This document shows, one piece after another, positions 1,452 to 63,190 of a stretch of DNA of 64,000 bases. The number at the start of each line of letters is the position of its first letter. Position 1 is the stretch's first letter. This DNA is from Candidatus Wolfebacteria bacterium. GTDB taxonomy: Bacteria; Patescibacteriota; Minisyncoccia; UBA6257; UBA9933. The translations under genes and the position numbers were made by a program. The notes beneath the pieces were generated by a model, which worked only from the letters and a program-made list of their open reading frames with translations, did no database searches and was not told the DNA's origin. The DNA lies in NCBI GenBank assembly GCA_016188075.1, contig JACPIO010000017.1, forward strand, positions 23,406 to 87,405. The letters are read 5' to 3'.

Positions 1452-1531
1452 CGACGGGAATAGTAAATAGTAAATAGTAATTAGTAAATAGATAAGGAAT
1501 ATAAATTACTAATTACCAATTACTAATTACC
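1452..1531. repeat. inverted pair of TAATTAC-type short repeats (family member, see findings)
   Basis: agtaaatagtaaatagtaattagtaaatag ... attactaattaccaattactaattacc. The arms are reverse complements of each other. The same motif recurs at 5301, 10141, 27831, 41611, 52119 and 63068. Confidence 0.6.
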
Positions 1532-1538
1532 GATCACT

Positions 1539-1814
1539 ATGAATAAAGTTGGACTCGTTGAGGCAGTAATGAAAGCTGCTGGTTTAGAGGTAAAAAAACA
1601 AGCCACTGGCGCCGTTGATGCTGTTTTCGATACCATTACCCAAACAATGAGCCGGGGCGAAGAAGTGGCTATTGCCGGTTTCGGCACCTTTCGAGTGGCG
1701 AAGAGAGCGGCTCGAATGGGTATTAATCCCCGAACAGGCGAGAAGATTCAGATTGCCGCTTCGGTAAAACCAAAATTCCGAGCTGGGAAAGCCTTAAAAG
1801 AGGCCGTAAAATAG
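1539..1814 (+). CDS. hup: DNA-binding protein HU
   Basis: 91 aa; MNK..GLVEAV...FGTFRVAKRAARMGINPRTGEKIQIAASVKPKFRAGKALKEAV is the canonical HU/IHF fold signature. Confidence 0.9.
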   Translation: MNKVGLVEAVMKAAGLEVKKQATGAVDAVFDTITQTMSRGEEVAIAGFGTFRVAKRAARMGINPRTGEKIQIAASVKPKFRAGKALKEAVK

Positions 1815-5298: not shown

Positions 5299-5332
5299 AG
5301 ACGGTAATTGGTAATTAGTAATTAGAAATTTT

Positions 5333-7660: not shown

Positions 7661-7662
7661 CA

Positions 7663-27031: not shown

Positions 27032-29102
27032 CATCGCTTTTTCTCTCTTTTGCATTAGAATTTTCGGTTACTTGAGGATTGACCCACGAGGCATAATCGC
27101 AGGCGGGATATTTTGAACAGCCGTAGAAAAAACGGCCGCGCTTGGTGCGTTTGCGAACCACTTCACCCTCTGCGCATTTCGGACATTTCATTTTAACGCC
27201 GTTCTCGTCCATCACCACATTTTTTATCGGCTTGGCGTTTTTGCAATCCGGAAAACCCGAGCAAGCCATGAATTTTCCGAAACGGCCGTATTTTATAATC
27301 ATCGGCTTGCCGCATTTTTCGCAATCCTCATCGGTCTTTTCTTCTATGGGTTTTTGCTTTTCCACTTCAAGATATTTTTTTTCCAAATTAACCGAAAACG
27401 GCTCATAAAATTTCCGGATGACATTTTGCCATTTTTCGGCGCCGATCGCGATTTCGTCCAATTCTTCTTCCATCCGGGCCGTAAACTGGATATCGACAAT
27501 TGTCGGGAAATGCTCGGTCAATATTTTATTTACGGCGCAGCCGATTTCGGTTGGCGCGAAACGCCGGTCTTCATTTTTAAGAACGTAATTTCTTTCCTGA
27601 ATCACCGAGATGGTCGGCGCGTAGGTGGAGGGCCGGCCGATGCCGTATTCTTCGAGCGTTTTAATAAGACTGGCTTCGTTGTAGCGCGGAGGCGGTTCGG
27701 TAAAATGCTGAGATGGCAAAACCTCAAGCAGTTTCAATTCTTCTTTTTCCGCGAGCGCCGGCAGTTCTTTTTCCTCGAATTGCGTGGGCCAAATTTTCAA
27801 AAACCCGTCAAATTTTAGAATACTGCCGGTGGTAATTAGTAAATAGTAATTAGCAATTAACGAGTTTTTGGCTTCTATCTCCACCCTTGTGGAGTCAAAA
27901 ATTGCTTGGGGCAGCTGCGAGGCGATAAAACGTCTCCAAATCAATTCGTAAAGTCTTTTTTCTTGATTATTTTCTCCCTGAAATTTTTCCGGAGCAAAGT
28001 CCGGCCGCGTGGGCCGAATAGCCTCATGCGCTTCTTGCGCCAAACGCGACTTTGTTTTAAAAAAGCGCGGGGCTTGACTCGCGTATTCTTTTCCCAATTT
28101 TTTTTCAATCCAGCTTTTAGCGGCCAGAACGGATTCGCGGGAAAGATTCACCGAGTCTGTCCGCATATAAGTGATTAAGCCGTTTTCGTAAAGACTCTGG
28201 GCGAACCGCATTGTTTGCTTAGCCGAACAGCGGAGGCGGCGAGACGCTTCCTGCTGAAGAGTCGATGTGGTAAAAGGCGGTAAGGGATTTCTTTTTAACT
28301 CTTTCTTTTCAATTTTGGAAACTCTAAAATCGCATTGCTTCAAATCAATGGCTATTTTATCCGCCTCCTCTTTTGTTTTAATTCCCAGCTTCGGAACAAC
28401 TTCGCCGTTTATTTTATGAAGCAGCGCAGTAAATTTATTTTCCGCGCCTGCCCCGAGTTTTACCGAGGGGTCGTTCCGCGCTGACTTCCGCGTTATTCCG
28501 CGCGATTGAAGCAGAGCTTCAATCGACCAGTATTCCTCCGGTTTGAAATTTTCAATCTCTTCTTCTCTTTCCGCAATCAAACGAAGCGCCACTGACTGCA
28601 CTCGGCCGGCCGAAAGCCGTCTCATCACCTTTTCCCACAAAAATGGCGAGAGTTTGTATCCCACCAAACGATCCAAAACGCGGCGCGCCTGTTGGGCGTC
28701 CACCAAACTCATATTAACTCCGCGAGGATTTTTTAAAGCTTCCTCAATGGCGGACTTGGTAATTTCGTGAAAAACGATTCTTTGGACCTTTGCCGTCCCC
28801 TCCTCATTTAATCCGAGCGCCTGGATTAAGTGATAGGCAATGGCTTCTCCTTCTCTGTCTTCGTCCGTTGCCATGATGACGGCATCGGCTTTTTCCGCTT
28901 CTTTTTTCAGCTGATTGACGCGCTTTTTGGACCTAATCGGAATGATATAGTGGGGTTCGAAATTTTTCTCAACATCAATTCCGATCTTGCTTTTCGGTAG
29001 ATCGCGAATATGACCCATGGTCGCAAGAACTTCATATTCTTTCCCAAGAAACCCTTTTAAGGTTTTTGATTTAGTTGGACTTTCCACTAAAATTAGTTTC
29101 AT
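27003..29102 (-). CDS. topA: DNA topoisomerase I
   Basis: 699 aa; TOPRIM N-terminus (MKLILVESPTKSKTLKGFLG...GHIRDLP) and C-terminal C4 zinc ribbons. In-frame insertion IANYYLLIT encoded by the TAATTAC repeat at 27831-27864. The 3' end runs into the GC-rich repeat, so the exact stop is uncertain. Confidence 0.9.
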   Translation of the reverse strand: MKLILVESPTKSKTLKGFLGKEYEVLATMGHIRDLPKSKIGIDVEKNFEPHYIIPIRSKKRVNQLKKEAEKADAVIMATDEDREGEAIAYHLIQALGLNEEGTAKVQRIVFHEITKSAIEEALKNPRGVNMSLVDAQQARRVLDRLVGYKLSPFLWEKVMRRLSAGRVQSVALRLIAEREEEIENFKPEEYWSIEALLQSRGITRKSARNDPSVKLGAGAENKFTALLHKINGEVVPKLGIKTKEEADKIAIDLKQCDFRVSKIEKKELKRNPLPPFTTSTLQQEASRRLRCSAKQTMRFAQSLYENGLITYMRTDSVNLSRESVLAAKSWIEKKLGKEYASQAPRFFKTKSRLAQEAHEAIRPTRPDFAPEKFQGENNQEKRLYELIWRRFIASQLPQAIFDSTRVEIEAKNSLIANYYLLITTGSILKFDGFLKIWPTQFEEKELPALAEKEELKLLEVLPSQHFTEPPPRYNEASLIKTLEEYGIGRPSTYAPTISVIQERNYVLKNEDRRFAPTEIGCAVNKILTEHFPTIVDIQFTARMEEELDEIAIGAEKWQNVIRKFYEPFSVNLEKKYLEVEKQKPIEEKTDEDCEKCGKPMIIKYGRFGKFMACSGFPDCKNAKPIKNVVMDENGVKMKCPKCAEGEVVRKRTKRGRFFYGCSKYPACDYASWVNPQVTENSNAKERKSDEPAGEARPL

Positions 29103-30230: not shown

Positions 30231-30329
30231 CTTTACATTTTAGTATATTTTGCGGGAAATTCAACGATAACGAGATTCATAAAACATAAAACATTTGCGC
30301 TTCATGCTTTATGCTTCATGATTTGTGAA

Positions 30330-31214
30330 TCATATCGTATATCCTCTTTCCGACTCCTTTATAAAATTATTGATTACCAGCATCGCGACTGTTTGACTTA
30401 CGACTTGCGGTTCCAGTTTAGTGAGCTCAATAATTTTGTCAATTCGAACCGGCTCCCCCGCCCCTTCAATAACTCTTAAAACCATTAATTGTTTCTCGTC
30501 TTTAATTTTTTGTGATTTCGTATTTTCGTATATTCGTACCTTTTCGTATTTCGTAGCCAGATTGAGGTCTTCCATTATATCTTCCGCCGAAGCAACCAAT
30601 CTCGCCCCGTCCCTGATTAAAGCGTGCGATCCCTTATAGTTGGGGTGCTCGACCGGTCCGGGAAAAACAAAAACTTCGCGACCCTGTTCAGCCGCGAGCC
30701 GCGCCGTAACCAAAGCGCCAGACTCCCTGGGAGCTTCGATTATAATGGCGGCCAAAGAAAGACCGCTTACGATTCTATTTCGTTCAAGAAATCGGTGCGG
30801 CAGGACCGGCGTCCCCGGAGAATATTCCGAGATAATCGCTCCGCCGGCTTGGAGAATCTGATTGGCTAAATTTTCATTCTGCTCAGGATAAATAGAATCG
30901 AGGCCGTTTCCAAGAACGGCAATGGTCGGCGATCCGCCGCGCAAACTGCCTTGGTGAGCCGCGGTGTCAATACCCATCGCCAAACCGCTTACGACAACGA
31001 GTCCCCGGCGCGACAAATCTTCGGCTAATCGTTTGGCCATATTTTTTCCGGCTTCGGTGGCTTTTCTCGTTCCCACAATGGCAACGCGCGGAATGTCGTA
31101 AGCGGGCAATTTCCCCAAAAAATAGAGCCCAGACGGCGCGCCTCGTATTTCCGAAAGCAAGGCCGGATAGCGGCTATCGCCCCTCTCTAAAAAATTTATT
31201 TCCGCTTTTGACAT
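30330..31214 (-). CDS. dprA: DNA processing protein DprA (Smf)
   Basis: 294 aa; ...VAIVGTRKATEAGKNMAKRLAEDLSRRGLVVVSGLAMGIDTAAHQGSL... Carries an in-frame (ttcgta)n insertion at 30521-30570. Confidence 0.85.
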   Translation of the reverse strand: MSKAEINFLERGDSRYPALLSEIRGAPSGLYFLGKLPAYDIPRVAIVGTRKATEAGKNMAKRLAEDLSRRGLVVVSGLAMGIDTAAHQGSLRGGSPTIAVLGNGLDSIYPEQNENLANQILQAGGAIISEYSPGTPVLPHRFLERNRIVSGLSLAAIIIEAPRESGALVTARLAAEQGREVFVFPGPVEHPNYKGSHALIRDGARLVASAEDIMEDLNLATKYEKVRIYENTKSQKIKDEKQLMVLRVIEGAGEPVRIDKIIELTKLEPQVVSQTVAMLVINNFIKESERGYTI

Positions 31215-31297
31215 AGACTAAAACATTGAATAATATTATAAATGAGTAAGCGCGAATTGGCGAATTCTCGCGAATATCGCAAATTAAATCTTTTGGC

Positions 31298-36047: not shown

Positions 36048-37862
36048 ATGCTCAATCAAGAACTCGCCAAAATTTTTTACGAGATCGCTCTCTACCTCCA
36101 AATGGATGAAGTGGCTTTCAAACCGCAGGCTTACGAGCGGGTCGGGGCGAGCTTAGAAAATTTATCCCAAAGCGTTGACTCTATTTATAAAAAAGAAGGT
36201 CTGATGGGACTCGAGAAAATTCCCGGCGTGGGCCGGGGCATCGCGGAAAAAATCATAGAGTACTTAGAAAACGGTCAAATTGACGAACACGAAAAATTAA
36301 AAAAGAAAATTCCGGTGAATCTGGAGGAGCTTTCAGCCATCGAAGGACTGGGGCCCAAAAGCATAAAAAAACTCTATCACAAACTCGGCGTTAAAAATCG
36401 TGAGGATTTAGAGAGTGCGGCTCGTAAACACAAAATCCGCGACCTCGAAGGTTTTGGCGAAAAAAGCGAAGAGAGAGTTTTAAAAAGCATTGAATTTTTG
36501 AAAAAATCCAAGGGCCGATTTATTTTGGGTTTTATTATGCCTGCGGTGCGCGAAATTGAAAATCAGCTTGGGCGACTTAAGGAGACTAAAAAAATCGTTG
36601 TTGCCGGCTCGGTTCGGCGCCGCAAAGAAACCATCGGCGACGTGGATATATTAATTGTCTCGGATACACCGCGACCTCTGATGGATTTTTTTATAAAAAT
36701 GCCTGAAGTGATTCAGGTTTGGGCTCATGGCGAAACCAAATCCAGCATTAAGCTTCAAAACGGCTTAGATATTGATTTAAGGGTGGTGCCGGAAAAATCC
36801 TACGGCGCGGCTCTAAATTATTTTACCGGCTCCAAAGAACACAATATAGCTTTACGGGAAATCGCTATTAAAAAAGGATATAAATTGAATGAATACGGAC
36901 TCTTTGGATACGGTAGGGGCCGAGCTTCCCGAGGTTCAACCTCCCAAATATTAAAGTCGATTCGCGAGGAGGTTGAACCTCGCAAAAATTGGCGTCAGAT
37001 CGCCGGCACGACCGAAGAGGAAATTTACAAATTACTGGGCCTTGATTATATTGAACCGGAACTGCGGGAAAACACCGGAGAAATCGAAGCGGCTAAAGCT
37101 GATAAACTACCCAAACTGATAAACTACTCTAATCTCCAAGGCGATCTTCAAATTCAAACCAACTGGACTGACGGAAAAAATTCCATCGAAGAAATGGCCC
37201 GGGCGGCAATGGAGGCTGGCCTTAATTACATCGCGATCACGGATCACAGCAAAAGATTAGCAATGACCGGCGGACTGGACGAGAAAAAAATCCAAAAGCA
37301 ATGGCAGGAAATCGACAGAGTTAATAAAAAGCTTCATGCTTCAGGCTTCAAGTTTCATGTTCTTAAAGGCAGTGAGTGCGATATTTTGAAAGACGGATCG
37401 CTTGATTTACCGGATGAAATTTTATCCAAGCTTGATGTCTGTGGAGCCGCGATTCATTCTTACTTTAACTTATCGCGCAAAGACCAGACCGAGCGATTAA
37501 AAAGAGCGATGCGAAATCCGAACGTGGATATTATTTTTCACCCGACCGGTCGAAAAATCCAATCCCGGGAGCCGTATGATTTAGATATTGACGAAATTAT
37601 CAAAACCGCCAAAGAAACCAACACGATTTTGGAAGTCGATTCTTACCCGGACCGACTGGACCTGAAAGACGAGCACATTCGAAAATGCGTGGAGGCCGGA
37701 GTCATGCTCGCGATTGATTCGGACGCGCATTCCGTAAGCCATCTCCCCTATCTTGAATACGGCATCGCGCAGGCGAGACGCGGGTGGTGTGAAAAAAAAG
37801 ATATTATAAATACAAGACCATTACCAGAGATGCTAAAATTGCTAAAAGACAAACAAGAATAA
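36048..37862 (+). CDS. polX: DNA polymerase X family protein with C-terminal PHP domain
   Basis: 604 aa; HhH motifs, Pol-beta nucleotidyltransferase core (GSVRRRKETIGDVDILIV), PHP domain (ITDHSK..., HPTGRKI...). In-frame insertion KLHASGFKFHVLKG at 37336-37370. Confidence 0.85.
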   Translation: MLNQELAKIFYEIALYLQMDEVAFKPQAYERVGASLENLSQSVDSIYKKEGLMGLEKIPGVGRGIAEKIIEYLENGQIDEHEKLKKKIPVNLEELSAIEGLGPKSIKKLYHKLGVKNREDLESAARKHKIRDLEGFGEKSEERVLKSIEFLKKSKGRFILGFIMPAVREIENQLGRLKETKKIVVAGSVRRRKETIGDVDILIVSDTPRPLMDFFIKMPEVIQVWAHGETKSSIKLQNGLDIDLRVVPEKSYGAALNYFTGSKEHNIALREIAIKKGYKLNEYGLFGYGRGRASRGSTSQILKSIREEVEPRKNWRQIAGTTEEEIYKLLGLDYIEPELRENTGEIEAAKADKLPKLINYSNLQGDLQIQTNWTDGKNSIEEMARAAMEAGLNYIAITDHSKRLAMTGGLDEKKIQKQWQEIDRVNKKLHASGFKFHVLKGSECDILKDGSLDLPDEILSKLDVCGAAIHSYFNLSRKDQTERLKRAMRNPNVDIIFHPTGRKIQSREPYDLDIDEIIKTAKETNTILEVDSYPDRLDLKDEHIRKCVEAGVMLAIDSDAHSVSHLPYLEYGIAQARRGWCEKKDIINTRPLPEMLKLLKDKQE

Positions 37863-38317: not shown

Positions 38318-38524
38318 AAAGAACTGCTTCTGGCACCATTGCCATTGCGGAAATCCTAACACGAACTTTCTATTTTTGTAAAGAAAAGTGGGAGAGATGA
38401 TAAAGGCGTAGATAATAAAAAATGAAAGAAAAAGAACAAGGAGAAAGAATAAGGAGGGGGTATGTCTGTATAGCGCACTATACACCTAAATTTGAGGTAA
38501 GATAATGACCGATATCAGAAATCT

Positions 38525-39386: not shown

Positions 39387-39519
39387 CTGTATAGTATACT
39401 ATACGGTTAAAAGGAAAACAATGCCCGCAGGTCTTCCGTGGTCATACATTTTTGGCAAATTCCAAATCGCGTGATAAAATAGAAGAGGAATCCCGAGAAT
39501 TATGTTAAAATGAAAACTT

Positions 39520-40824: not shown

Positions 40825-40932
40825 TTTAGCTTTTTAGCATATCGATACCAATATACAAATGTACGAATTATACTAATCACAAGCCATCGATTCATTCGTA
40901 TCATTAGTAAATTCGTATATTCGCATCGATAC

Positions 40933-41597: not shown

Positions 41598-41641
41598 ATG
41601 CGGTAATTAATACTCTTTTCCCTAACTACTAATTACTAATT

Positions 41642-41990
41642 TGGTGGAGATGAGGGTATTGAAACCCTGTCCAAAAATTAACTTTAAAAATTTCTACAGG
41701 TTTAGTCCCGATGAATGAAGGATTAAGGAATGAAATCGGGACGAAAAATCCTTAATTCTTTGCCGATTTTTGTCCCCGCCAAAATTGGCAATTTAGGCGG
41801 GCTAGTCTAATTTATTACACCCGAACCTCTTGATTCAGACACCCAAGAGCGGATGCCGCTTAGGCAAAAGCGAAAGCGGGAGCTAATCTGTTATTGGCAG
41901 ATATAGTTTTGATTCGATGATTTTCAAGGTGACGAATCATCCTTGACCTGCGATTTTTAAAGATCATTTCTGTCGAGGCCTTGCATCCCC
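41642..41990 (-). ncRNA. ssrA: tmRNA (SsrA)
   Basis: 5' GGGGATGCAAGGCCTCGACAG... and 3' ...GGACAGGGTTTCAATACCCTCATCTCCACCA. G3-U70 wobble in the acceptor (Ala identity), T-arm-like hairpin. Candidate tag ORF GCC AAT AAC AGA TTA GCT CCC GCT TTC GCT TTT GCC TAA (ANNRLAPAFAFA*). Adjacent to smpB. Confidence 0.75.
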
Positions 41991-42512: not shown

Positions 42513-42608
42513 AGATTAAGTATCGAGAATTTTATGGATAGTAGCAAGCAGAAAATCGAATATAATCAAATTTTGCAATTTAGCAGCTCGTCGCTTAATA
42601 TAAATACA

Positions 42609-47386: not shown

Positions 47387-49913
47387 TTATTTTCGGCGGT
47401 TCATCAACTTCTCCAGCTCGTAAACCATCTCGGTGGTTTTTATAATCGCGTCCGGGTTCAAAGACATTGATTCGATTCCTTCTTCAATCAAAAACTTGGC
47501 GAATTCCGGAAAAGTCGAGGGCGCGTCGCCGCAGATACCGACATACTTTTTGGCTTTACGGCATTTACGGATTACTTCGGCAATAAGTTTTTTTACTGAT
47601 TCGTCGCGTTCGTCGGCAATTCCTTTAATTTGGCCGCCGGCGTCGCGGTCAATGCCAACCGCAAGTTGGGTTAAATCATTCGAACCAATACTCATTCCGT
47701 CAAAAATTTTCAAAAACTCGTCGGCTAAAATGACGTTCGAGGGAATCTCGGCCATCACGTAGACTTTCAACGCAGACTCACGCTGACTTTTTTCCGCGTA
47801 GTTCCGCGTTAGTTTCCGCGTAGTTCCGCGAAAAAGTCCTTGCTTTGCCATAATGGCAAGGACTTTTTGTCCTTCCTCGGCTGTTCGGCAAAAGGGAATC
47901 ATCACCGCGATATTATCCAATCCCATTTCCTCGCGGACTTTTTTAATAGCCTTAATCTCTAAAATAAAGGCCGGCGCGAAATCCGGATGGTAATAGCGGG
48001 AGGCGCCGCGCCAGCCAATCATCGGATTCTCTTCTTGCGGTTCGTAGAGCTCGCCGCCGATTAAAGTGCGATATTCGTTAGTTTTAAAATCGGAGAATCG
48101 GACAATCACCTCTTTGGGATAAAAAGCCGCCCCGATTTTTGCGATACCATAAGCGAGTTTGTCAATATAAAATTGGGTTTTATCATTGTAGCCGATAGTC
48201 CGCTTTTCAATCTCTTTTATGATTTGTTTTAGATATTTAGTATTTTTGAATTTAGAATTTATTTGAAACTTGGAAATTGGAAATTGGAAATTCCTCTTCT
48301 TGATTTTTTCAAAATCAAGAATGAGGTTCGGATGTATTCCGATTTCCGAAGCGATAATAAACTCTTCCCGAGCCAATCCCACTCCATCGTTTGGCAAAAA
48401 CGATTTTTCAAAGGCTGTGTCCGGGGTCGCGATATTCATCGTGATTTTTGTTTTGGGCCGAGGGATTTTTTTGATATTGTGCTCGACTATTTTGAATTTC
48501 AGTACGCCGGAATAAACCAGGCCATCGCTCCCGGAACAGTCCACTGTAATCATCTCGCCGGTTTTAATTTTCCGCGTGGCGTTTTCCGTCCCCACAACAC
48601 AGGGAATTCCCAGATTGATGAATATTTTTCGTGTCTAAGATCACGCGGGCAAGGCCTGTCGCGATTTTACTCCCAACCGACGCGCCTTTGACGAGTAATT
48701 TCGGATTTCGGATTGCGGATTGCGGATTTTCTAACTTATATTCTTTTACTTTTGAATAATCGCGTTCCGCGTGAATTGTTTCCGGTCGGGCTTGGACAAT
48801 AAAAAGCTTCCCGGTTTTTCCGTCTTTGGCCCATTCCAAATCCATGGGCGTCCATTTTTTATGCCTTTTAGTATAATGTTCTTCAATTAAAACCGCCCAG
48901 CGAGCCAATTTTAGAATTTCTCCATCGTTTAAAATAAAATTTTCTTTTTCTTTTTGGGAGGTTGATACGATTTTTGTGTTTTTGATGGTTCGACGCGGCT
49001 CACCACTGGTGGTTCGACGCCGCCGACCACCAGTGCCGCTGGCTTCTCCATAAATCATCTTTCGATTTTTTACCCCCAATCTTTTATCGATAATCGGCAC
49101 AAGCGCGGACTGACGCTGACTTGACGCGGACTGACGCGAAATATCTCTGCGTAGGTCTGCGTGTAGTCCGCGTTGTTCTGCGAGTTTTGGTTTAAAAACT
49201 AAAAATTCGTCCGGCGTTACTTCGCCCTGAACAATCATTTCGCCCAAGCCCCACGAACCGTTAATGATAATTAAATCTTTGAACCCGGACTCGGTGTCAA
49301 GAGTGAATATCACGCCGGATGAACCTAAATCCGAACGCACCATTTTTTGAACGCCAACAGATAGAGCAACCTTAAAATGATCGAATCCTTTGTCGACGCG
49401 GTAAGAGATCGCCCGATCGGTAAAAAGCGAAGCCATGGCGGAGCGAACCGCGAGCAAAATTTCTTGCGAGCCCCGAATGTTTAAATACGTTTCGTGCTCC
49501 CCGGCAAAAGAAGCTCCGGGCAAATCCTCGGCCGTAGCAGAAGAGCGGACAGCCGTATCGGTATTTTTGCCGTACTTTTTTTCCATTTCGGCGCAGGCTT
49601 GCGCGATGTCTTTCTCGAGATCTTTGGGAAAATTTTTGGAACGAATTTCCTCGCGGATGAGCTTGGCGCGTTTTTCCAAATCATGAAGATTTTTTGTGTC
49701 CAATCCCTTTAAGGCAGTTTTAATAAATTTTTTTAGGCCGGTTTTGTCAAGAAAATAGCGGTAAGCAGTCGCGGTTACGACAAATCCGCCGGGGATATTA
49801 ATGCCCTTTAATTCCAGCTTTTGAATCATCTCGCCCAAAGAGGCATTTTTTCCGCCGACTTCCGGAACGTCTTTAATGGAGACCGCAGAAAGATTTTTAA
49901 TAAAAGGCTTCAT
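47387..49913 (-). pseudogene. ppsA: phosphoenolpyruvate synthase-like gene, disrupted (two ORF fragments 48564..49913 and 47387..48595)
   Basis: N-fragment has the PEP/pyruvate-binding domain and ends ...IATGLARVILDTKNIHQ. C-fragment begins at the ...ELGIPCVVGTENATRKIKTGEMITVDC motif of the phospho-His domain and continues into the TIM-barrel PEP-utilising domain. The frame changes at about 48610 and the ~55 codons that normally carry the catalytic His are absent. Several in-frame low-complexity insertions. Confidence 0.65.
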
Positions 49914-50003
49914 GGAGGCGTAATACCAATCTACGAATGCGCACGAATGATACGAATAGCTGCGAATTGATTCGTGACATTCGTATTAATTCGTAGATTC
50001 GTA

Positions 50004-51323
50004 TTATATCTTTAATACTACCATCAAATCCGCCACGTTGAAACTTTTCGGTTCGACAAAAAGCAAATCTCCGGTTTTTTCGAAAAAATGGAATGAATCG
50101 TGGTTATCCAGAAATTCTCCCTTGTCGAGATTTAAATTTCGCGCGGCCTCGATTGTTTTCGCGTCCGCGATGGCGCCGGCGGCCTCCGTCGCGTCGTGGC
50201 CATCGCTCGCGAAGGACATCATCACCGCGCCATCTTTTATGCCGGATTCGAAACTGCAGATTGCCCCTAAAACCGCCTCCATATTTCTTCCGCCTTTACC
50301 TAATTTGTGATTTTTGATAGTTACCGTTGTTTCTCCGGCAGCCAAAAAAACTTGATTCGATTTTATATTCCGCAGCATAGGCTCGAATATATCTTTTGCT
50401 TCGCCCTCTAGGGCCAGCGAGTAAATCTTACTTAAAAAGCCCAGTTTCTCCGCTTCCGCAAGCATGGCCATGACCGCGTCCTGGTTACAGACAAAAAGCA
50501 TGTTGGTTGTTTTTTTAAAAAGCGCTTTTTCTTTGGGCGTTTCAATCAAATGAAAATCCGCCGGATTCAAATTGTATTTTTTCAAAATTGTTTCCGCGTC
50601 AGCTTTTGTGGTTTCGTCAAAAACAGTGGGGCCGGACGCGATTATTCCCAAGTGATTGCCGCAGACGTCGGAAACAATCAGAGAAACGATTGTTGCTCTC
50701 GAAGCCATCTTTACTAACCCGCCGCCCTTCAAGATAGAAAGGTGTTTCCGTACCGTATTTAATTCTTCGATATTAGCTCCGGCTTTTGTCAGTTCTTTGG
50801 TAATTAAACTGGAATCTTTCAACTCTTCTTCGGAAACGCAGGTTAAGGAAGATCCGCCGCCTCCCACAAAAACAAGCAATAAATCTTCCTTAGTTAAAGA
50901 CTGGGCCAGCTTGATAATTTCTTTGGTCGCGACGATATTAGGCTCCGAAGGCAAGGGATGGGTACCTTTTAAAATTTCTAATTTCAAATTTCTGATTTCA
51001 AATTGCGGATTGCCAATATCAAGAGCGATGCCTTTTTCCAGTCGCTCGCCTAAAATATTAGCAATGGCATTGGAAGCCAAAGACGATCCCTTACCGATGC
51101 CGACCAGAAAGACCTTTTGAAATTTTGCCAAATCGATTTTAAATCCGCGATCAAAAAATAATCCCCTTGAACCAAAGTGTTTTATGACAAGCCGGTCTTT
51201 TTTCAAACTGACTTTTCGTAAAATTGCCGACTCAATCTCAATGGCCCGATAACCGGCTTCGGCGATTTTCAGGGCTTTTTCCCGTAAAGGCGTTTTCGCT
51301 AAATCTTTAAAATTGGTAATCAT
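50004..51323 (-). CDS. glycerate 2-kinase (MOFRL family)
   Basis: DUF4147 + MOFRL domains (…LLLVFVGGGGSSL…, …GGRNMEAVLGA…); start placed at internal Met (MITNFKDLAK), which avoids overlap with the ROK gene. Confidence 0.7.
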   Translation of the reverse strand: MITNFKDLAKTPLREKALKIAEAGYRAIEIESAILRKVSLKKDRLVIKHFGSRGLFFDRGFKIDLAKFQKVFLVGIGKGSSLASNAIANILGERLEKGIALDIGNPQFEIRNLKLEILKGTHPLPSEPNIVATKEIIKLAQSLTKEDLLLVFVGGGGSSLTCVSEEELKDSSLITKELTKAGANIEELNTVRKHLSILKGGGLVKMASRATIVSLIVSDVCGNHLGIIASGPTVFDETTKADAETILKKYNLNPADFHLIETPKEKALFKKTTNMLFVCNQDAVMAMLAEAEKLGFLSKIYSLALEGEAKDIFEPMLRNIKSNQVFLAAGETTVTIKNHKLGKGGRNMEAVLGAICSFESGIKDGAVMMSFASDGHDATEAAGAIADAKTIEAARNLNLDKGEFLDNHDSFHFFEKTGDLLFVEPKSFNVADLMVVLKI

Positions 51324-56140: not shown

Positions 56141-59100
56141 TAAGAAATTTTTTTCAAGCCCATCCAGATTGGTTGATTTTCGAATTGAGTTTCGAGTTCC
56201 GCGTCAAATTTTTCTGATTTCCTAAACTCCACATTTTTCGCTCCGATTTTCAACTTAAATTGATTGACCTGCTTCCCGAGTGCTTCCCGGACCCACGGCG
56301 GCGCCTCGAGCCATAAATAAATTTTGTCTTTGGGCAAATAACCGGCCTTCTGCCGCAAATCCTGAACAATTCGAACAAAATCTCTTAAAATTCCTTCTTC
56401 GCGCAAGGCCGGAGTGATTTTCGTGTCCAGCTCGACCTCATTTTTAATTTTCGCATCGAAAATAATTTTTTTGACGTTAATTTCGTCGGCAAGAATTTTT
56501 AATAGTTCCTGATTTTTTCTAATTTCTAACTTCTCATTTTTAATTTCTAATTTCTGTAGCGGCTGCCTGATTTTGACCCTGGCTTGGGCCCGCGCTTCAA
56601 GCGCCAAAGAAGCAAGGCGCCGAATTTCTTTCATCTGATAAATCAGTTTTTTTTCGGATGGGCTTAATTTTTCTACCTTAGGCCAACCCGCCAAATGGAC
56701 CGATTCGTGATGCGCGCCCTCTGAATCCTTGTTTAATTTTAAATGCAAAAGGTCGGCCAAAAATGGCACAAAGGGCGCCGTGACTTTGGAAAGTTCGCTT
56801 AGAATAAATTGGGTCGTCGCGATTGCTTCTTTTTTATTTTTCGCGCCCCTTGAGCCATTGTCCGATTTAAATCTTTCGCGGGAGCGGCGGATGTACCACG
56901 TTGACAGGTCGTCGATAAAATCAGCGATGGGGCGAACCGCTTGGTCGAGTTCGTAACCATCCATAGCTTTTGAGACGGAACCAACCAACTCTTTAAGCCG
57001 CCCTAAAATCCATAAGTCTAAAAGATTTTTAGTCGTTTGTCGTTTGTCGTTAGTCGTTAGTATTTTCCGACCTGCGTAGATTTCGTAAAAACTAAAAACA
57101 TTTAAAAGCCGCAAAATTACTTTTTTATAAATTTCGTCCACTCCTTTTTCGGAAAAATTGAGATCTTCGGCGCGGACGGCCGGCGAAGATAAAAGATAGA
57201 AACGAAGAGTGTCAACGCCGTATTTAGCCACAATATCCATCGGGTCGGGGTAATTTTTAAGCCGTTTGCTCATTTTCTGGCCGTCTTCGGCGAGGACGAT
57301 ACCGTTTACAATCACATTTTTAAAAGCTGGCTTGCCAAAAAGAGACGTTCCTAAAACATGGAGCGTGTAGAACCAACCGCGAGTCATGTCAACTCCTTCG
57401 GCGATAAATTTCGCCGGAAAGTTCTTTTCGAATTTGGCTTTGTTTTCAAAAGGATAATGCGATTGGCCGTAGGGCATGGCGCCGGACTCAAACCAACAAT
57501 CAAAAACATACTCCACGCGCTTCATCTTGCTACCGCAGGAGCAATTAATCTCAAATTCATCAATATAAGGACGATGGAGGTCAAGCTCAAAATTATCGTT
57601 ATGCGGCAATGGAGAAAAATCCAGCCTCATCATTGCTCCGGTTTTTATAAAATCGTCTTCTTGCGCTTTTTTGATCACGACTGATTTTTTGTCGTCAGCG
57701 CCAATGGCGCCGGCCGCCATTAGCCAAATCGGATACTCGTGGCTCACAATTAAAATCTTTTTATTTTTATAACGGGAATTAATCTCATAAAGAAATTCTG
57801 TTACGCGGTTTTTCAGTTCGGTTAAATTTTCGCCTTGAGGAGGATTTTTCACGAATCTTTCTAAAAGAGGGGCGTAGGCGCGGTAATTCCGGATTGATTC
57901 GCCGTCAAACGCGCCCGTATTTACCTCGCGCAATCGCTTATCAAAAATAATTTTTTCTCTTGGCAGATTAAGCGCTTCTTTTAAGATAAAAGTTGTTTCT
58001 TTGGATCGGAAAAAGTCCGAAGAAAAAATTAAATCAATTTTTTCTTTTCGGAGTTTTTTGGCCGTCTCCCTAACCTCTTCGCGGCCGCGCGGAGTTAAAG
58101 GATACTTAGTGCTTTTTTTAACATCAGAACTTAAAACATTTAATACGTTGTGCCGAGCTTCGCCGTGCCGCATCAAAAAATATTGATTGTCGGATTTGGG
58201 AAGGGCATCCTTTAATTCCTGAAGCGAACCAATTATTTTAATTCCATTGCAGGATTTAGGATTTAGGATTTCGGATTTCCCTGCTTGGCAGCGCCAAACA
58301 GGGATGGGCGCTCCCCAATAGCGCGAACGGGAAATAGCCCAATCCGGCGCGTCCTCGAGCCCTCTGCCAAAACGACCATCTTTCAAGTGTTTCGGAACCC
58401 AATTTATTTTTTGATTATTGGAGAGCAAGTCATTTTTTATTGCCGTCACCTTCACAAACCAGGACGAGGCGGCATAATTCAAAAGAGGCGTTTCGCACCG
58501 CCAGCAATGCGGATAAGAATGAGTGATTCTTTCAGATTTAAAAAGCTTGTCTTTTTTTTCTAAAAGCTCAATGATTTTGTTGTCAGTGGACTCGTGCTCG
58601 CCCTTGGGTTTTACGGGCAAGCCGGAAAAATCTTTGACTTCCGGTTTGAACCTGCCGTCCATTCCCACGTGCTGAATAAAAGGCAGATCATATTTTTGGC
58701 CGAGGGCCATATCATCTGCTCCGAAAGCCGGTGCAATATGAACAATGCCCGTGCCTTCATCGGTTTTTACAAAATCCGCCGGATAAATCCTCCAACCATT
58801 TCTGCGTTGTTCTGCGTTTATTTCCGCGTCGTTCTGCGGTTTAGCATAATAGTCAAAAAGCGGTTTGTATTTTTTACCGATAAGATCGCGGGCGTCTACG
58901 CTTCGGACAATTTTATATTCTTTGCCAAAAACAGATTCTACGCGAGACTCGGCAAGAATATACGCGTTGCCGGGAATTTGCCCTTCGACTTTTACATATT
59001 TAACCTTTGGATTTACCGCGAGCGCCGCGTTGCCCGGCAGGGTCCAAGGAGTAGTGGTCCAAGCGAGTAAATAGTTTTTAGTTTTCGGTTTTTGGTTTTT

Positions 59101-59763
59101 GGTTTCTTCCAATTCAAATTCAACAATCACTGACGAATCCTCAATATCCTTATATCCCTGGGCCACCTCGAAATTGGAAAGGGTGGTTTCGCAGCGCGGA
59201 CAAATGTGCATTGACTTGTAGCCCTCGTAAATCAGTTTTTTGTCGTAAAGGGTCTTGAAAACCCACCAGACCGATTCGGTGTATTCCGAATCCATTGTCC
59301 GATAGTCATTTTCCATATCTACCCAACGGCCGATCCGCGGGATAATTTTTTTCCAGTCACTTACGTAGCGGAGCACTTCGTTCCGCGCCGCTTCGTTAAA
59401 TTTTCCGACGCCGAATTTTTCAATGTCTTTTTTAGTTTCGAGACTTAAATTCTGCTCGATGATATTTTCAATAGGCAAACCATGGCAATCCCAACCCCAT
59501 TTACGCTCCACGCGATAGCCTTTCATCGTTTGATAACGGGGGATAACGTCCTTAATCACGCTCGCCAAAATATGGCCGTAGTGCGGCAGGCCGGTCGCAA
59601 AAGGCGGGCCATCGTAGAAAACGTAGTCTTTCCGCGTTAATCCGCGTCCAGTCCGCGTAGTTCTGCTCTTGAAAGATTTCTCGAAAATCCGATGCTCCTG
59701 CCAGTATTTCAGGATTTTTTCCTCAAGTTCGAAGGGTTTAAGATTTTTAAGATCGCCAAACAT
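56140..59763 (-). CDS. ileS: isoleucine--tRNA ligase with an inserted histidine-phosphatase (PGAM-like) domain
   Basis: 1207 aa; HIGH (PHYGH), CP1 editing (TTTPWTLPGNAALAV), WRCETPLL..., KMSKR. An RHG phosphatase domain (LMRHGEARHN...ILIVSHEYP; about aa 527-718, nt ~57610-58185) lies between WGAPIPVWRC and DLHRPYIDEF. Several low-complexity in-frame insertions. Confidence 0.85.
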   Translation of the reverse strand: MFGDLKNLKPFELEEKILKYWQEHRIFEKSFKSRTTRTGRGLTRKDYVFYDGPPFATGLPHYGHILASVIKDVIPRYQTMKGYRVERKWGWDCHGLPIENIIEQNLSLETKKDIEKFGVGKFNEAARNEVLRYVSDWKKIIPRIGRWVDMENDYRTMDSEYTESVWWVFKTLYDKKLIYEGYKSMHICPRCETTLSNFEVAQGYKDIEDSSVIVEFELEETKNQKPKTKNYLLAWTTTPWTLPGNAALAVNPKVKYVKVEGQIPGNAYILAESRVESVFGKEYKIVRSVDARDLIGKKYKPLFDYYAKPQNDAEINAEQRRNGWRIYPADFVKTDEGTGIVHIAPAFGADDMALGQKYDLPFIQHVGMDGRFKPEVKDFSGLPVKPKGEHESTDNKIIELLEKKDKLFKSERITHSYPHCWRCETPLLNYAASSWFVKVTAIKNDLLSNNQKINWVPKHLKDGRFGRGLEDAPDWAISRSRYWGAPIPVWRCQAGKSEILNPKSCNGIKIIGSLQELKDALPKSDNQYFLMRHGEARHNVLNVLSSDVKKSTKYPLTPRGREEVRETAKKLRKEKIDLIFSSDFFRSKETTFILKEALNLPREKIIFDKRLREVNTGAFDGESIRNYRAYAPLLERFVKNPPQGENLTELKNRVTEFLYEINSRYKNKKILIVSHEYPIWLMAAGAIGADDKKSVVIKKAQEDDFIKTGAMMRLDFSPLPHNDNFELDLHRPYIDEFEINCSCGSKMKRVEYVFDCWFESGAMPYGQSHYPFENKAKFEKNFPAKFIAEGVDMTRGWFYTLHVLGTSLFGKPAFKNVIVNGIVLAEDGQKMSKRLKNYPDPMDIVAKYGVDTLRFYLLSSPAVRAEDLNFSEKGVDEIYKKVILRLLNVFSFYEIYAGRKILTTNDKRQTTKNLLDLWILGRLKELVGSVSKAMDGYELDQAVRPIADFIDDLSTWYIRRSRERFKSDNGSRGAKNKKEAIATTQFILSELSKVTAPFVPFLADLLHLKLNKDSEGAHHESVHLAGWPKVEKLSPSEKKLIYQMKEIRRLASLALEARAQARVKIRQPLQKLEIKNEKLEIRKNQELLKILADEINVKKIIFDAKIKNEVELDTKITPALREEGILRDFVRIVQDLRQKAGYLPKDKIYLWLEAPPWVREALGKQVNQFKLKIGAKNVEFRKSEKFDAELETQFENQPIWMGLKKIS

Positions 59764-60003: not shown

Positions 60004-60912
60004 TTATTTTCTTCGCCTCCCGTGAAACGCTCGGTGAACTTCTTTCAACTCTTTATTAGTAATGTGAGTGTAAATTTGAGTGGTGGAAATGTTGGAGTGA
60101 CCCAAGAGTTCTTGAACTGAACGCAGATCCGCGCCGCCGATTAATAAATCCGTTGCGAATTGGTGGCGAAGCTGGTGCGGGGTAACGTGATCCGGAATAC
60201 CGGCTTTCCTTGTGTAAAAATTTACCAATCTCTGCACTGCCCGCGGAATAATCCGGCCTATCACCCTTGGTTGTTTGTTGTTAGTTGTTCGTTGTGAGTT
60301 TTTGCTCAAACTCACAAACATCGCTTCTTCGGCGTCACCTCTTTTATCCAAATAATTTTTGATGGCTTTTTTGGCCCGGTCGGAGAAAAAAACCACCCGC
60401 AATTTATCGCCTTTGCCCCGCACGCTGATTTCGCCTCTTTCCAAATCAAGATAGCGATTCAAACCGCAAAGTTCGGAAATCCGGAGGCCGGTGGAAAATA
60501 GAGTTTCCAAAATGGCTTTGTCCCGAAGCGAGCGCAAATCATTGCCCTTGGGTGCGTCCAGCAATCTTTCCAAATCTTTATATTCCAGGATTTCAATCTG
60601 GCGCTCCGGAATTTTCGGCAGTTCGATTTTATCAGGAGATAAAACCGGAATATCGCGCTTGATTAAATATTTTAAAAAACTCCGCAAAGCAATAATATAA
60701 TAGCTTTGGGTATTTTTTTTGATATTTCTTCGCGCTAAGTCGAGTCGAAAGTCGCGCACCGCCTCCGCCGTAACGTCTTTTTCATTTTTTATTTTCGCAA
60801 AATTTAAAAACGCCGCAAGATACCTTTCATAATTTTCCCGCGTTTTAATCGAACGATTTTTCTCGATTTCGAGGTAATTAAGGTAATCAATGAGAAGTTT
60901 ATTTATATCCAT
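60004..60912 (-). CDS. tyrosine recombinase XerC/XerD family
   Basis: 302 aa; ...LRISELCGL..., HQLRHQFATDLL, LGHSNISTTQIYTHI catalytic Tyr region. In-frame insertion at 60261-60310. Confidence 0.85.
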   Translation of the reverse strand: MDINKLLIDYLNYLEIEKNRSIKTRENYERYLAAFLNFAKIKNEKDVTAEAVRDFRLDLARRNIKKNTQSYYIIALRSFLKYLIKRDIPVLSPDKIELPKIPERQIEILEYKDLERLLDAPKGNDLRSLRDKAILETLFSTGLRISELCGLNRYLDLERGEISVRGKGDKLRVVFFSDRAKKAIKNYLDKRGDAEEAMFVSLSKNSQRTTNNKQPRVIGRIIPRAVQRLVNFYTRKAGIPDHVTPHQLRHQFATDLLIGGADLRSVQELLGHSNISTTQIYTHITNKELKEVHRAFHGRRRK

Positions 60913-61023
60913 AAGTCATGATTCAAGATTTATGATTTAGGATTTATGAAGAGATGTCGCACATTAATTTTAGCACATGCGAGTTTACTTATCTATCGAT
61001 TTGGTATTATTATGGAAATAACT

Positions 61024-62307
61024 ATGCGAGACAAAATTTTGAAAAAATTAGTGAGGGAAGAAGCAAGGCGGCAGGCGGAGACGCTTGACCTTATTCCCTC
61101 GGAAAACATTGTTTCCAAGGAAATTTTGCGGATTCTGGGGTCGCCCTTAACAAATAAATATTCCGAAGGGTACCCGGGAAAGCGCTATTATGCTGGCAAC
61201 AAAATCGTTGACGAGATCGAACTTCTGGCGCAGGAGCGGGCACGAAAGGTTTTTCGATTAGGGAAAAACTGGCATGTGAATGTTCAGCCGTATTCAGGAT
61301 CGCCGGCTAACGCCGCCGTGTATCTGGCGCTCCTCAAACCGAAAGACAAAATTATGGGAATGAATCTCTCCTCGGGCGGCCACCTTACCCATGGATCGCG
61401 CGTGAGCTTTTCCGGAAAATTTTTCACCTCTGTTCCATTTGACGTCGAGCGAGACGGATTTCTAAATTACAGCAATCTCCGAAAACTTGCCCGAAAAGAA
61501 AAACCAAAAATCATCGTGGCCGGATTTACCGCTTATCCACGCATTGTTGATTTCAAAAAATTTAGCGCGATCGCGAAGGAAATCGGTGCTTATTTAATGG
61601 TTGATATGGCGCATATTGCCGGGCTCGTAGCTTCAGGAGCGCATCCCTCGCCATTCCCTTACGCAGATGTAGTAACAACGACCACCCACAAAACTTTGCG
61701 CGGACCCAGAGGAGCAATCATATTTGTAAACAAAAATTCAAAATTCATTTTTGCGAAACAAATCCCCGGAGGGTCAAATCAAAAATCAAAATTATCAATC
61801 GCCGATGCGATTGATCGGGCGGTTTTCCCGGGTCTTCAGGGCGGCCCGCACGATAATCAGACTGCGGCTATTGCCCAATGTCTTTACGAAGCAATGCAAC
61901 CATCATTTAAAAAATACGGCTGGCAGATTGTCAAAAACGCCAAGGCGCTGGCTCGGGAATTAATAAAATTGGGTTTCAATTTGGTTTCCGGCGGCACGGA
62001 TAATCATTTAATGTTAATTGATTTAACCAATATGGGAATTTCCGGACGCGAGGCACAGGACGCACTCGAAGAAGTCGGGATTATTGTAAACAGGAATACT
62101 ATCCCTTATGACACCCGCTCGCCATTTGATCCATCCGGAATCAGAATCGGCACGCCGAGTTTAACCACGCGCGGAATGAAAGAAAGAGAAATGAAAAGAA
62201 TCGCGGAGCTAATTTATTTAACCCTGACCAAAAAAGAAAAACCGGCTCTAATCAAAAAAGAGATTCAAAAACTCTGCCAAAAATTTCCAATCGAGCGGCA
62301 GCTTTAA
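61024..62307 (+). CDS. glyA: serine hydroxymethyltransferase
   Basis: SHMT motifs (YSEGYPGKRYYAG, TTHKTLRGPRG). Start placed at MRDKILKK; in-frame A/T-rich insertion at about 61721-61800. Confidence 0.9.
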   Translation: MRDKILKKLVREEARRQAETLDLIPSENIVSKEILRILGSPLTNKYSEGYPGKRYYAGNKIVDEIELLAQERARKVFRLGKNWHVNVQPYSGSPANAAVYLALLKPKDKIMGMNLSSGGHLTHGSRVSFSGKFFTSVPFDVERDGFLNYSNLRKLARKEKPKIIVAGFTAYPRIVDFKKFSAIAKEIGAYLMVDMAHIAGLVASGAHPSPFPYADVVTTTTHKTLRGPRGAIIFVNKNSKFIFAKQIPGGSNQKSKLSIADAIDRAVFPGLQGGPHDNQTAAIAQCLYEAMQPSFKKYGWQIVKNAKALARELIKLGFNLVSGGTDNHLMLIDLTNMGISGREAQDALEEVGIIVNRNTIPYDTRSPFDPSGIRIGTPSLTTRGMKEREMKRIAELIYLTLTKKEKPALIKKEIQKLCQKFPIERQL

Positions 62308-62324: not shown

Positions 62325-63190
62325 ATGATTATTGACGGGAAAGCGATAGCGGAAAAAATTATCGCCGATTTAAAAAAACAACCAATTCCCAAAAAGATTC
62401 TGGCGGCGGTTTTGGTGGGCGAAAATGCGGCTTCGGTTTCATTTTTAAAACAAAAAGAAAAAATTGCCAAGGAATTAGGGGTAGATTTTAGAATTTATAA
62501 ACTTAGCGAAGGCCTGAAAAGCGACGGTCTGCGAAAGGAAGTTGGAAGAATCGCGAGGCAAAGTAGGGTGGGCGGGATTATCGTCCAATTACCTCTGCCT
62601 CAAGGCATAAACCGGCGATATGTTTTAAACGCCATTCCCTTGGAAAAAGACGTTGATGTTTTGAGCGAAAAAGCGCAGGAAGCGTTTCGGCTGGGAAAAA
62701 GCAAAATTTTGCCGCCGAAGCGTTTCGGCTGGGAAAAAGCAAAATTTTGCCGCCGGCAGTTGGCGTCGTTGAAGAAATTATTCATGCTTCAGGCTTCACG
62801 CTTCATGATTCACGAGTTGCCGTCGTGGGCCTTGGCTTTTTAGTTGGAAAGCCGATTTCCGAATGGCTTAGGGACAAAACCAAAGAATTGTATTTATTAG
62901 ATAAAGGCGATGATTTTTCTGTTTTGAAAAACGCTGACTTAGTGATTACTGGTGTTGGCCAAGCCGGAATTATAAAGCCCGAGATGTTAAAAGACGGCGC
63001 CGGCGTAGTTGATTTCGGGTACTCCATTGATACGGCCGGCAAAATCCACGGCGACTTCGACACTCAATTACCAGTTACTAATTACCAATTACTGCGTTTT
63101 TATACAAAAACTCCGGGCGGCACCGGCCCGATACTGGTCGCGAAACTTTTTGAGAATTTTTATAGTTTGTGCTTACATCAAAAATCTTAA
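62325..63190 (+). pseudogene. folD: methylenetetrahydrofolate dehydrogenase/cyclohydrolase FolD, frameshifted by a 38-bp tandem duplication
   Basis: Two track ORFs (62325..62843, 62747..63190) are both FolD-like. The unit gaagcgtttcggctgggaaaaagcaaaattttgccgcc is duplicated head-to-tail at 62669-62706 and 62707-62744. Removing one copy restores ...GKSKILPPAVGVVEEII.... Confidence 0.7.

Follow-up and report, generated by a model that had tools for sequence, protein, structure and literature searches.

Short tandem heptamer and decamer arrays in housekeeping genes of a Candidatus Wolfebacteria genome and of some other Candidate Phyla Radiation bacteria

Tandem heptanucleotide arrays that prefer four units are known from Xanthomonas, in which the unit is GGGAATC, and from Nostoc; they are mostly intergenic and have been attributed to G-quadruplex formation (PMC4692102). 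Geobacter metallireducens has 49 elements made of four GGGACCG units, which lie both within and between genes (PMC2700814). Among other short bacterial repeats, REP and REPIN elements are mobilised by RAYT transposases (PMC3116915), and Rickettsia palindromic elements (RPE) are mentioned in PMC1779305 and PMC10969869. Here we describe short tandem arrays, many of them with units of 7 or 10 nt, in a 64-kb stretch of DNA from a Candidatus Wolfebacteria bacterium (assembly GCA_016188075.1, contig JACPIO010000017.1; hereafter the window), where they occupy ileS, which encodes isoleucyl-tRNA synthetase (IleRS), and other housekeeping genes as well as intergenic regions. We found no report of such arrays in the Candidate Phyla Radiation (CPR)/Patescibacteria in the searchable full-text literature.

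Arrays were called with Tandem Repeats Finder (TRF), overlapping calls were removed, and the null expectation was taken from order-3 Markov simulations based on the window's own composition. The window contains 74 non-redundant tandem arrays compared with 15.8 +/- 3.4 in the simulations, and this excess over chance is real. Head-to-tail repetition of a 7-nt unit accounts for 27 arrays (18 of period 7 and nine of period 14 or 21) where 2.4 are expected and the simulation maximum is 8, and a further 11 arrays have a period of 10 or 20 nt (2.8 expected). Nearly all the repeat blocks listed in the original prediction, which had been made from the sequence alone, were recovered by TRF where it had placed them, and the gene names that it had given agree with Pfam matches, which identify ileS (tRNA-synt_1, Anticodon_1), ppsA (PPDK_N, PEP-utilizers_C; in two ORFs), dprA, xerC, glyA, gyrA, topA, clpB, PolX, argS and guaA among others. 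The window has arrays in 12 or more genes and at eight or more intergenic sites, and independent assemblies of relatives have them too, in keeping with the genome-wide process that had been proposed. Among the arrays of period 7 or 10, 22 are genic and six intergenic, the intergenic density being only about twofold higher.

Size statistics were obtained from 88 period-7 arrays in the window and related loci. These have a median copy number of 4.4, a modal length of 31–32 bp and a peak at 28–33 bp; the length distribution does not decay monotonically from the detection limit of 18 bp, which indicates a preference for about four units. A typical array in the window is approximately 28–35 bp long and consists of about four heptamers or of three to four decamers built around ACGCGGA, and insert sizes range from 18 to 66 nt. 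The heptamer class comprises many distinct units, such as AATTACY, AAATCCK, AGAAATT, ACGACWA, AAACCAA and GCTTCAT; the decamer class has a conserved core, ACGCGGA or ACGCAGA, followed by three variable bases; and a third class with a period of 8–10 nt has an ACGAAT or GCGAAT core. Unit diversity is high, with more than 60 canonical heptamers among the 88 arrays and the majority of units found only once in the DNA examined. The arrays are AT-rich and lack G-tracts. Single arrays are not themselves palindromic; an array frequently faces its own reverse complement, forming a hairpin, and such inverted pairs occur both between genes (1459–1539, 40841–40930 and 49921–50006, with hairpins of about 30 bp between codirectional genes) and within them (gyrA 9781–9837, ppsA 47770–47830 and ppsA 49104–49186).

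The ileS ORF (56140–59763, minus strand) encodes a product of 1,207 aa. A Wolfebacteria protein in NCBI matches it at 100% identity, the next relative reaches only 66%, and an exact look-up of the sequence in public contigs gave no hit. Arrays are present at six sites, all on the minus strand:

Site 1, 59625..59665, aa 34–47: decamer array with core ACGCGGA plus three variable nt, encoding TTRTGRGLTRK; 7 aa above the short form found in most homologues.
Site 2, 59074..59105, aa 220–230: heptamer array of 4.6 AAACCAA units, encoding TKNQKPKTKN.
Site 3, 58798..58843, aa 307–322: decamer/22-mer array with an ACGCRGA core, encoding PQNDAEINAEQRRN; its 5-aa NDAEI segment is missing from 98% of homologues.
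Site 4, 58251..58278, aa 496–505: heptamer array of four AAATCCK units; 10-aa insertion.
Site 5, 57029..57061, aa 901–912: heptamer array of 4.7 ACGACWA units; length-conserved site.
Site 6, 56516..56555, aa 1070–1083: heptamer array of 5.7 AGAAATT units; length-conserved site in a structured region.

Insertions in IleRS were called from an alignment of 40 homologues and checked at the DNA level in four orthologues. Those at aa 33–45, 220–228, 309–320 and 494–503 were confirmed against orthologues or solved structures, and residues 36–40, 221–226, 311–315 and 494–503 are missing from 62–98% of the 40 aligned homologues. Mapping onto homologue structures had been expected to place the inserts in surface loops. 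In alignments with solved IleRS structures, the first three of these segments fall opposite gaps, and the fourth is at the end of the matched stretch. Two further blocks in ileS, 56501–56560 and 57031–57060, had also been predicted to be insertions, and here the prediction fails: the corresponding regions, around aa 1070–1085 and 900–912, show no length difference from homologues, all four orthologues examined at the DNA level carry an array of equal or near-equal length at both sites, and repeat peptides are present in most of the 41 aligned sequences. The peptides themselves differ (KAKSLKLKA, TTNDKRQTT, KTINYKLKT, LKIKNQKSKIK), and so do the underlying units, with three array families among the four orthologues at aa 900; at aa 494, the window has a heptamer array and the related locus L081 a decamer array.

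An AlphaFold2 model of IleRS residues 1–1200, built with 54 sequences, has a mean predicted local distance difference test (pLDDT) score of 84. The sole segments with pLDDT below 50 are residues 34–42, 224–226, 496–502, 901–907, 969–972 and 1014–1018, four of which lie inside array sites and two of which are small window-specific inserts. The array at residues 1070–1083, by comparison, falls in a strand-turn region that the model folds with confidence and whose length is conserved. The 494–503 insert splits a nearly invariant cysteine pair, C492 and C505, equivalent to a CxxC pair in homologues, and at least this site is therefore not a featureless loop. Additional support for tolerance comes from the stop codons that are avoided: in 9 of the 22 genic arrays a perfect consensus array would create an in-frame stop, and a variant unit sits exactly there, as in KS*ILNPK, which is read as KSEILNPK. 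With the caveat of the split cysteine pair, the low-pLDDT segments and the stop-avoiding variants agree with the original suggestion that the inserts are tolerated loops, and survival of the arrays is restricted to in-frame, stop-free, loop positions.

Two other features of IleRS were noted. Residues 529–691 (57691–58179, minus strand) form a complete histidine-phosphatase domain (His_Phos_1, RHG motif), whose insertion separates the KMSKS half of the catalytic domain from the editing/CP region, a fusion common to the best 120 homologues listed (from Wolfebacteria and other Parcubacteria). In addition, the relative L085 has, at its positions 9447–9473, a 27-nt palindromic insert (CTGTTGCGAAGCAAC...) nested in an IleRS heptamer array and lacking from relatives L084 and L086, which suggests that existing arrays can serve as safe landing sites for small insertions.

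The distribution of arrays among lineages was surveyed in the DNA around ileS of 80 species-representative genomes as the density of period-7 arrays per 10 kb. In most of these genomes, non-CPR ones included, the density is near background (0–0.9 per 10 kb); it is 3.4 in the window, 4.7 in a Patescibacteria bin (L003), 6.5 in a Wolfebacteria fragment (L013) and 7.2 in a Peribacteria bin (L026). Occurrence among CPR lineages is patchy. In the Peribacteria bin, the IleRS ORF is unbroken and has arrays at approximately aa 773, 900 and 968, which, judged by eye from the translation, are the same loops as in Wolfebacteria.

Recurrence at the same sites and concerted change of units are also evident in other genes. 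At the PolX site, peptides of equal length read LHASGFKFHV in the window, LTTNNQQLRV in L084 and KCQRSNVKCR in L086, the folD sites likewise have equal lengths and different units between orthologues, and at one site three AAAACTC units in one genome correspond to three AAAATTA units in another. Many array sites are length-preserving replacements and not additions. A clean 42-nt decamer array is present in L084 and absent in L085 and L086; it has neither a target-site duplication nor terminal inverted repeats and, therefore, does not qualify as a miniature inverted-repeat transposable element. At several sites L085 and L086 have different array families. The length-preserving replacements, the frequency of inverted pairs and the extension to other CPR lineages go beyond what had been predicted.

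Some units are nevertheless shared among sites within a genome, and dispersed unit families exist. In the window, the AATTACY pattern is matched 36 times, where chance predicts 4.1, and the matches are spread over seven sites; in L084, a stretch of 23.7 kb contains 17 occurrences of ACGCAGAC where 0.14 are expected, at seven separate sites that are all in housekeeping genes; AACAACC is found at four sites in L084. The arrays of PolX and folD (62780..62814) have the same order of variant units, with 26 of 28 positions matching in register. Overall, 13.2% of unit pairs are similar within genomes compared with 7.5% between genomes. Arrays of one family have no common flanks or ends.

A metagenome scan for ACGCAGAC(NN)ACGCAGAC found 120 contigs, many of which hold more than a single array or have arrays in inverted pairs, and in which two units are more frequent than three and three more frequent than four; these counts follow from the chaining rule and do not reproduce the four-unit peak. 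Four-unit AATTACY arrays were also found in giant-virus bins. Decamer arrays with the ACGCGGA core were detected in eight high-GC viral contigs, and two scrambled control cores gave eight and three contigs; because scrambled cores also match, the ACGCGGA arrays in viral contigs are no evidence of an element conserved across lineages or kingdoms. In the window, ACGCGGA occurs 21 times (10.4 expected), mostly within arrays, and this approximately twofold enrichment, together with the coexistence of many unit families, rules out a DNA uptake signal. One of the viral contigs, the high-GC, phage-like IMGVR_UViG_3300031999_000479 (L089), has eight arrays of three to four (GAACGCGGAT) units, for example at 3234–3271, 3713–3742, 4533–4572 and 4960–4997, and in all three intergenic regions inspected the array is just upstream of a gene's ribosome-binding site; these arrays may be a phage regulatory repeat.

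In the remaining genes of the window, ppsA, xerC and glyA were compared with the syntenic relative L082, gyrA was compared with Mycobacterium tuberculosis GyrA, and the dprA array was placed against one distant structure and no close orthologue. The arrays and related inserts in these genes are as follows:

gyrA C-terminal domain, 9781..9837, plus strand: ACAGACT array plus inverted copy; 19-aa insertion compared with M. tuberculosis GyrA.
gyrA, 10147..10173, plus strand: 3.9 AATTACC units; insertion of exactly 7 aa (21 nt), that is three heptamers, compared with M. tuberculosis GyrA.
topA, 27832..27860, minus strand: AATTACT-type heptamer array.
topA, 28474..28507, minus strand: decamer array with GCGCGGAA core.
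dprA, 30515..30555, minus strand: TACGAAA-type array, period 7–10, in a linker just past the conserved domain.
PolX, 37331..37359, plus strand: 4.1 GCTTCAT units; equal length and different units in L084 and L086.
ppsA, 47770..47870, minus strand: two ACGCWGA units facing four TCCGCGT units (hairpin), plus a perfect 13–14-nt palindrome.
ppsA, 48228..48292, minus strand: two adjoining heptamer arrays (TTCTAAA-type and AATTTCC); approximately 20 aa inserted.
ppsA, 48698..48729, minus strand: heptamer array of 4.6 AAATCCG/CAATCCG units; 6-aa insertion.
ppsA, 48985..49040, minus strand: 24-bp tandem duplication (TGGRRRRT followed by TSGEPRRT), also hairpin-forming.
ppsA, 49104..49186, minus strand: inverted pair of decamer arrays (ACGCGGACTG / TCTGCGT...); 22-aa insertion compared with L082.
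glycerate kinase gene (DUF4147/MOFRL), 50968..51011, minus strand: heptamer array of AATTTGA/AATTAGA units.
xerC, 60270..60304, minus strand: heptamer array of 4.4 ACAACNA units; 9-aa insertion compared with L082.
glyA, 61733..61791, plus strand: two weak heptamer runs (AAAATTC, AAATCAA) inside a 10-aa insertion.
folD, 62780..62814, plus strand: GCTTCAK array; L082 has an AAAACTT array of equal length there.
folD C-terminal part, 63066..63093, plus strand: four AATTACY units.

Most of the blocks that had been predicted in ileS, ppsA, xerC, glyA and gyrA are, therefore, true in-frame insertions, the two length-conserved blocks in ileS being the part of that claim that did not hold. All five ppsA insertions are specific to the window compared with L082, which for its part carries inserts that the window lacks. 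The predicted perfect palindrome in ppsA was found and is imperfect in L082, and the gyrA block 9781–9850, thought to be partly palindromic, proved to consist of an array and its inverted copy; the ppsA block 48985–49040, in turn, is a tandem duplication that folds as a hairpin and not a microsatellite. With TRF scores of 30–32 the arrays in glyA are weak, yet the 10-aa insertion compared with L082 is real. At the glycerate kinase site, L083 has a similar array, and L084–L086 have arrays of other families. Across ten genes or gene parts we counted 15 window-specific insertions that are 4 aa or longer and missing from all compared orthologues; seven overlap a TRF array, and the remainder include hairpins and plain duplications.

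The prediction that all inserts keep the reading frame is true of the arrays, and two of the genes are frameshifted elsewhere. In ppsA, approximately 43 codons of the swivel domain are deleted near 48560–48600 and one extra base shifts the frame, which splits the gene into two overlapping ORFs; the catalytic histidine (TSHAAI in L082) is within the deleted codons, and the break reflects either a pseudogene or a misassembly. In folD, the frame is shifted by a perfect 38-bp tandem duplication at 62679–62755, and the C-terminal domain continues in another frame to approximately 63260. The PpsA swivel domain of L086 houses a LAGLIDADG intein.

Arrays outside protein-coding genes are located at the following positions:

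1459..1539, intergenic: inverted pair of heptamer arrays (AATAGTA / AATTACY), hairpin.
5304..5330, intergenic: AATTACY array.
30299..30320, intergenic, downstream of dprA: GCTTCAT array.
31245..31280, intergenic: direct array with GCGAAT core.
40841..40930, intergenic: inverted pair of TACGAAT-type arrays, hairpin.
41622..41643, adjoining the 3' end of the tmRNA gene: AATTACT array.
49921..50006, intergenic, between the glycerate kinase gene and ppsA: 37-nt inverted pair of arrays with ACGAAT core, hairpin.
60918..60949, intergenic, between xerC and glyA: array of AAATCMT heptamers.

The three intergenic blocks that had been described as related to the genic ones are among these, 40841–40930 and 49921–50006 as inverted pairs and 31245–31280 as a direct array. 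No Rfam family covers the arrays.

The window contains other repeats and insertions as well. A dispersed repeat of approximately 172 nt is present in four copies that are 68–87% identical (1851–2022, 7510–7681, 16006–16177 and 38507–38678), one of which starts beside a perfect 19-nt palindrome at 1837–1874. The palindrome GCTACGTTTAAACGTAGC has seven to eight copies among small ORFs at 16200–17660 with an irregular spacing of 89–770 bp, and the palindromic motif CTGTATAG-N-CACTATACAG has four copies at 38464–39413, approximately 200–460 bp apart. PolX has a window-specific insertion of 26 aa at 36906–36993 that folds into a highly stable hairpin (GAGGTTCAACCTCC / GGAGGTTGAACCTC, approximately -39 kcal/mol) and is a palindromic insert of another kind than the tandem arrays. 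The arginyl-tRNA synthetase encoded by argS (42483–43859) is approximately 95 aa longer than its orthologues in L084–L086; it has four window-specific insertions of 10–14 aa, which are neither tandem arrays nor hairpins, and a longer N-terminus. Finally, the ORF at 29115–30230 (minus strand), between topA and dprA, is free-standing and has a weak LAGLIDADG_3 match.

The explanation that we favour, with about even confidence, is that the arrays are neutral or selfish "nanosatellite" DNA that is generated by replication template switching, homogenised and subsequently filtered by selection, and that they are not adaptive features of the proteins. Template switching during replication would both create the arrays and keep them internally homogeneous: strand slippage or conversion within an array would yield tandem copies, fold-back copying would yield the inverted partner and hence the hairpins, and now and then an array would be copied, with no transposase involved, into a new site or onto an array already there. 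Purifying selection is shown to spare only arrays whose added length is a multiple of three bases, which have no in-frame stop and which occupy either intergenic DNA or permissive loops at the protein surface; as a result, the same few loop sites of housekeeping enzymes are reoccupied across CPR lineages by different unit families. The 38-bp duplication in folD, the 24-bp duplication in ppsA and the ppsA palindrome that is perfect in the window and imperfect in L082 point to active tandem and fold-back copying. As to the two origins originally suggested, slippage-prone seeds and tiny mobile elements, the evidence is divided: concerted unit change, these duplications and the perfected palindrome speak for slippage or conversion, the AATTACY and ACGCAGAC families speak for dispersal, and the 42-nt insertion in L084 speaks against a classical mobile element. 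Hallmarks of transposons are absent, and Pfam identified none of the 40 ORFs of the window as a transposase, a reverse transcriptase or an HUH nuclease.

Several observations weigh against this explanation. A heptamer array cannot grow unit by unit in an essential gene, and simple slippage, therefore, fails to account for the birth of an array; a multi-unit or whole-array event is required, and none was directly observed. A search for local seeds, based on the longest common substring between an array and the array-less orthologue, gave a combined p of 0.057 in eight cases and was not significant. Family-specific cores at many unrelated sites are unexpected from purely local events and suggest real dispersal. 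Over a few hundred bases, the flanks of arrays swapped between L085 and L086 are 78–88% identical against a background of approximately 97–99%, so that part of the apparent turnover may reflect hypermutation in the region or alleles brought in by recombination; rapid turnover in situ between these two genomes is correspondingly weakened. The explanation also leaves unaccounted for why the period is 7 bases and why arrays favour roughly four units.

The main rival is that the arrays are tiny nonautonomous mobile elements, in which an array or an inverted pair is moved by an enzyme encoded elsewhere, such as a single-strand transposase of the HUH/RAYT type or a reverse transcriptase, and selection spares only copies that are in frame and in loops. 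We consider this unlikely on balance, although several observations favour it: families with a common core are dispersed, as illustrated by AATTACY at seven sites and by ACGCAGAC at more than 100 times its expected frequency at seven sites in L084; the clean 42-nt insertion in L084 lacks any obvious local seed and does not occur in two sister genomes; variant units follow one another in the same order in PolX and folD; inverted doublets recall REPINs; and the lineage distribution is patchy. However, arrays of one family lack conserved termini and flanks, terminal inverted repeats and target-site duplications, the units are very diverse, no candidate enzyme was found in the 64-kb window, and many sites show a length-preserving change of units in place of an insertion.

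Functional readings are less likely still, and we regard as improbable the proposals that the hairpins act as terminators or mRNA stabilisers, that the arrays are protein-binding sites with repeats of 7 or 10 bp, or that the encoded hydrophilic loops are beneficial. In favour of such roles, ribbon-helix-helix proteins bind heptad arrays, some array sites have been kept at a fixed length over long periods (IleRS aa 900 and aa 1070, PolX and folD), the intergenic pairs form their hairpins between codirectional genes, and similar decamer arrays precede genes in the phage-like contig L089. Against them, orthologous sites differ in their unit sequence, a single genome holds many unit families that are unrelated to each other, and the majority of homologues presumably work normally with no insertion; moreover, the inserted segments of IleRS are predicted to be disordered, no Rfam family matches, and the twofold enrichment of ACGCGGA is unlike that of uptake signals or operator motifs. 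A comparably long shot is that some CPR lineages have an "array writer", acting in trans and directed by a template, that installs or rewrites tandem arrays of approximately 28–40 nt at susceptible sites genome-wide; such a system could be a reverse transcriptase, a nickase-polymerase or an ectopic-conversion system that uses a few master templates, and, if true, it would account for genome-specific unit families, length-preserving family replacement and the fixed size of about four units. It is hardly credible that the arrays stem from errors of assembly or binning, or that they are low-complexity sequence produced by chance in a genome with an AT bias: the window does come from a metagenome-assembled genome in which the ppsA and folD frameshifts could be assembly errors, but arrays are up to elevenfold more frequent than the Markov-3 expectation, leave long ORFs open and recur at orthologous positions in independent assemblies (NCBI, JGI, ENA, Logan), including the same loop sites of Peribacteria IleRS.

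If the arrays are DNA of the nanosatellite kind, a repeat process at the DNA level, and not adaptation, would lie behind a sizeable share of the lineage-specific "insertions" known from CPR proteins, as with the 7 of 15 in the window, and repeat-derived inserts consequently matter for the annotation, alignment and modelling of these proteins. The inserts also chart where essential enzymes accept extra loops and thereby provide a natural map of permissive sites, one of which, in IleRS, separates two cysteines of a Zn knuckle. Because the arrays are patchily distributed and the genomes are small, it is feasible to compare genomes in search of the enzyme, or the factor of replication or repair, that is responsible.

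Comparison with known systems separates the arrays from most of them. Contingency-locus simple sequence repeats also consist of short, slippage-prone tandem units in coding regions, but they are frameshifting on/off switches of surface or restriction-modification genes with variable copy number, whereas here the arrays are in essential genes (ileS, gyrA, topA, glyA and similar) with intact frames. REP/REPIN elements are likewise short, highly repeated and dispersed, with inverted doublets that form intergenic hairpins; however, REPs are individually palindromic, extragenic and linked to RAYT, whereas the arrays described here, despite the existence of doublets, are mostly intragenic and singly nonpalindromic, and no RAYT gene was found among the 40 ORFs of the window. 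The RPE, which are selfish DNA and were reportedly described by Ogata et al. in 2000, are closer in that repeated DNA of a noncoding type is inserted in frame into essential protein genes at tolerated surface regions, as we find here for coding genes. They differ in being single palindromic elements of approximately 100–150 bp with family-wide similarity; our arrays are 20–45 bp of tandem subrepeats, have nothing in common beyond the unit and are only sometimes paired. The small dispersed repeats (SDR) of Nostoc are said, in work by Elhai et al. in 2008, to be 21–27 nt long and mobile-like, with no enzyme known, and to be unique sequences and not tandem arrays; they share with our arrays a length below 50 nt and dispersal, and differ in not being tandem.

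The greatest likeness is to the short tandemly repeated repetitive (STRR) sequences of Calothrix/Nostoc and to the Xanthomonas and Geobacter arrays, which have a 7-nt unit, about four units per array and a dispersal over many sites of the genome. These known heptanucleotide arrays have one or a few G-rich units per genome and are mostly intergenic, whereas the arrays described here are AT-rich, very diverse and in the majority located inside housekeeping genes; in addition, a decamer class composed of core and spacer, inverted pairs and a small-genome CPR host set them apart. Because they are AT-rich and free of G-tracts, the G-quadruplex explanation cannot apply to them, which argues against G-quadruplex formation as a general explanation of four-unit heptanucleotide arrays. 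The arrays are, therefore, best filed as a variant of the poorly understood phenomenon of dispersed heptanucleotide arrays, one that riddles the housekeeping genes of some CPR bacteria.

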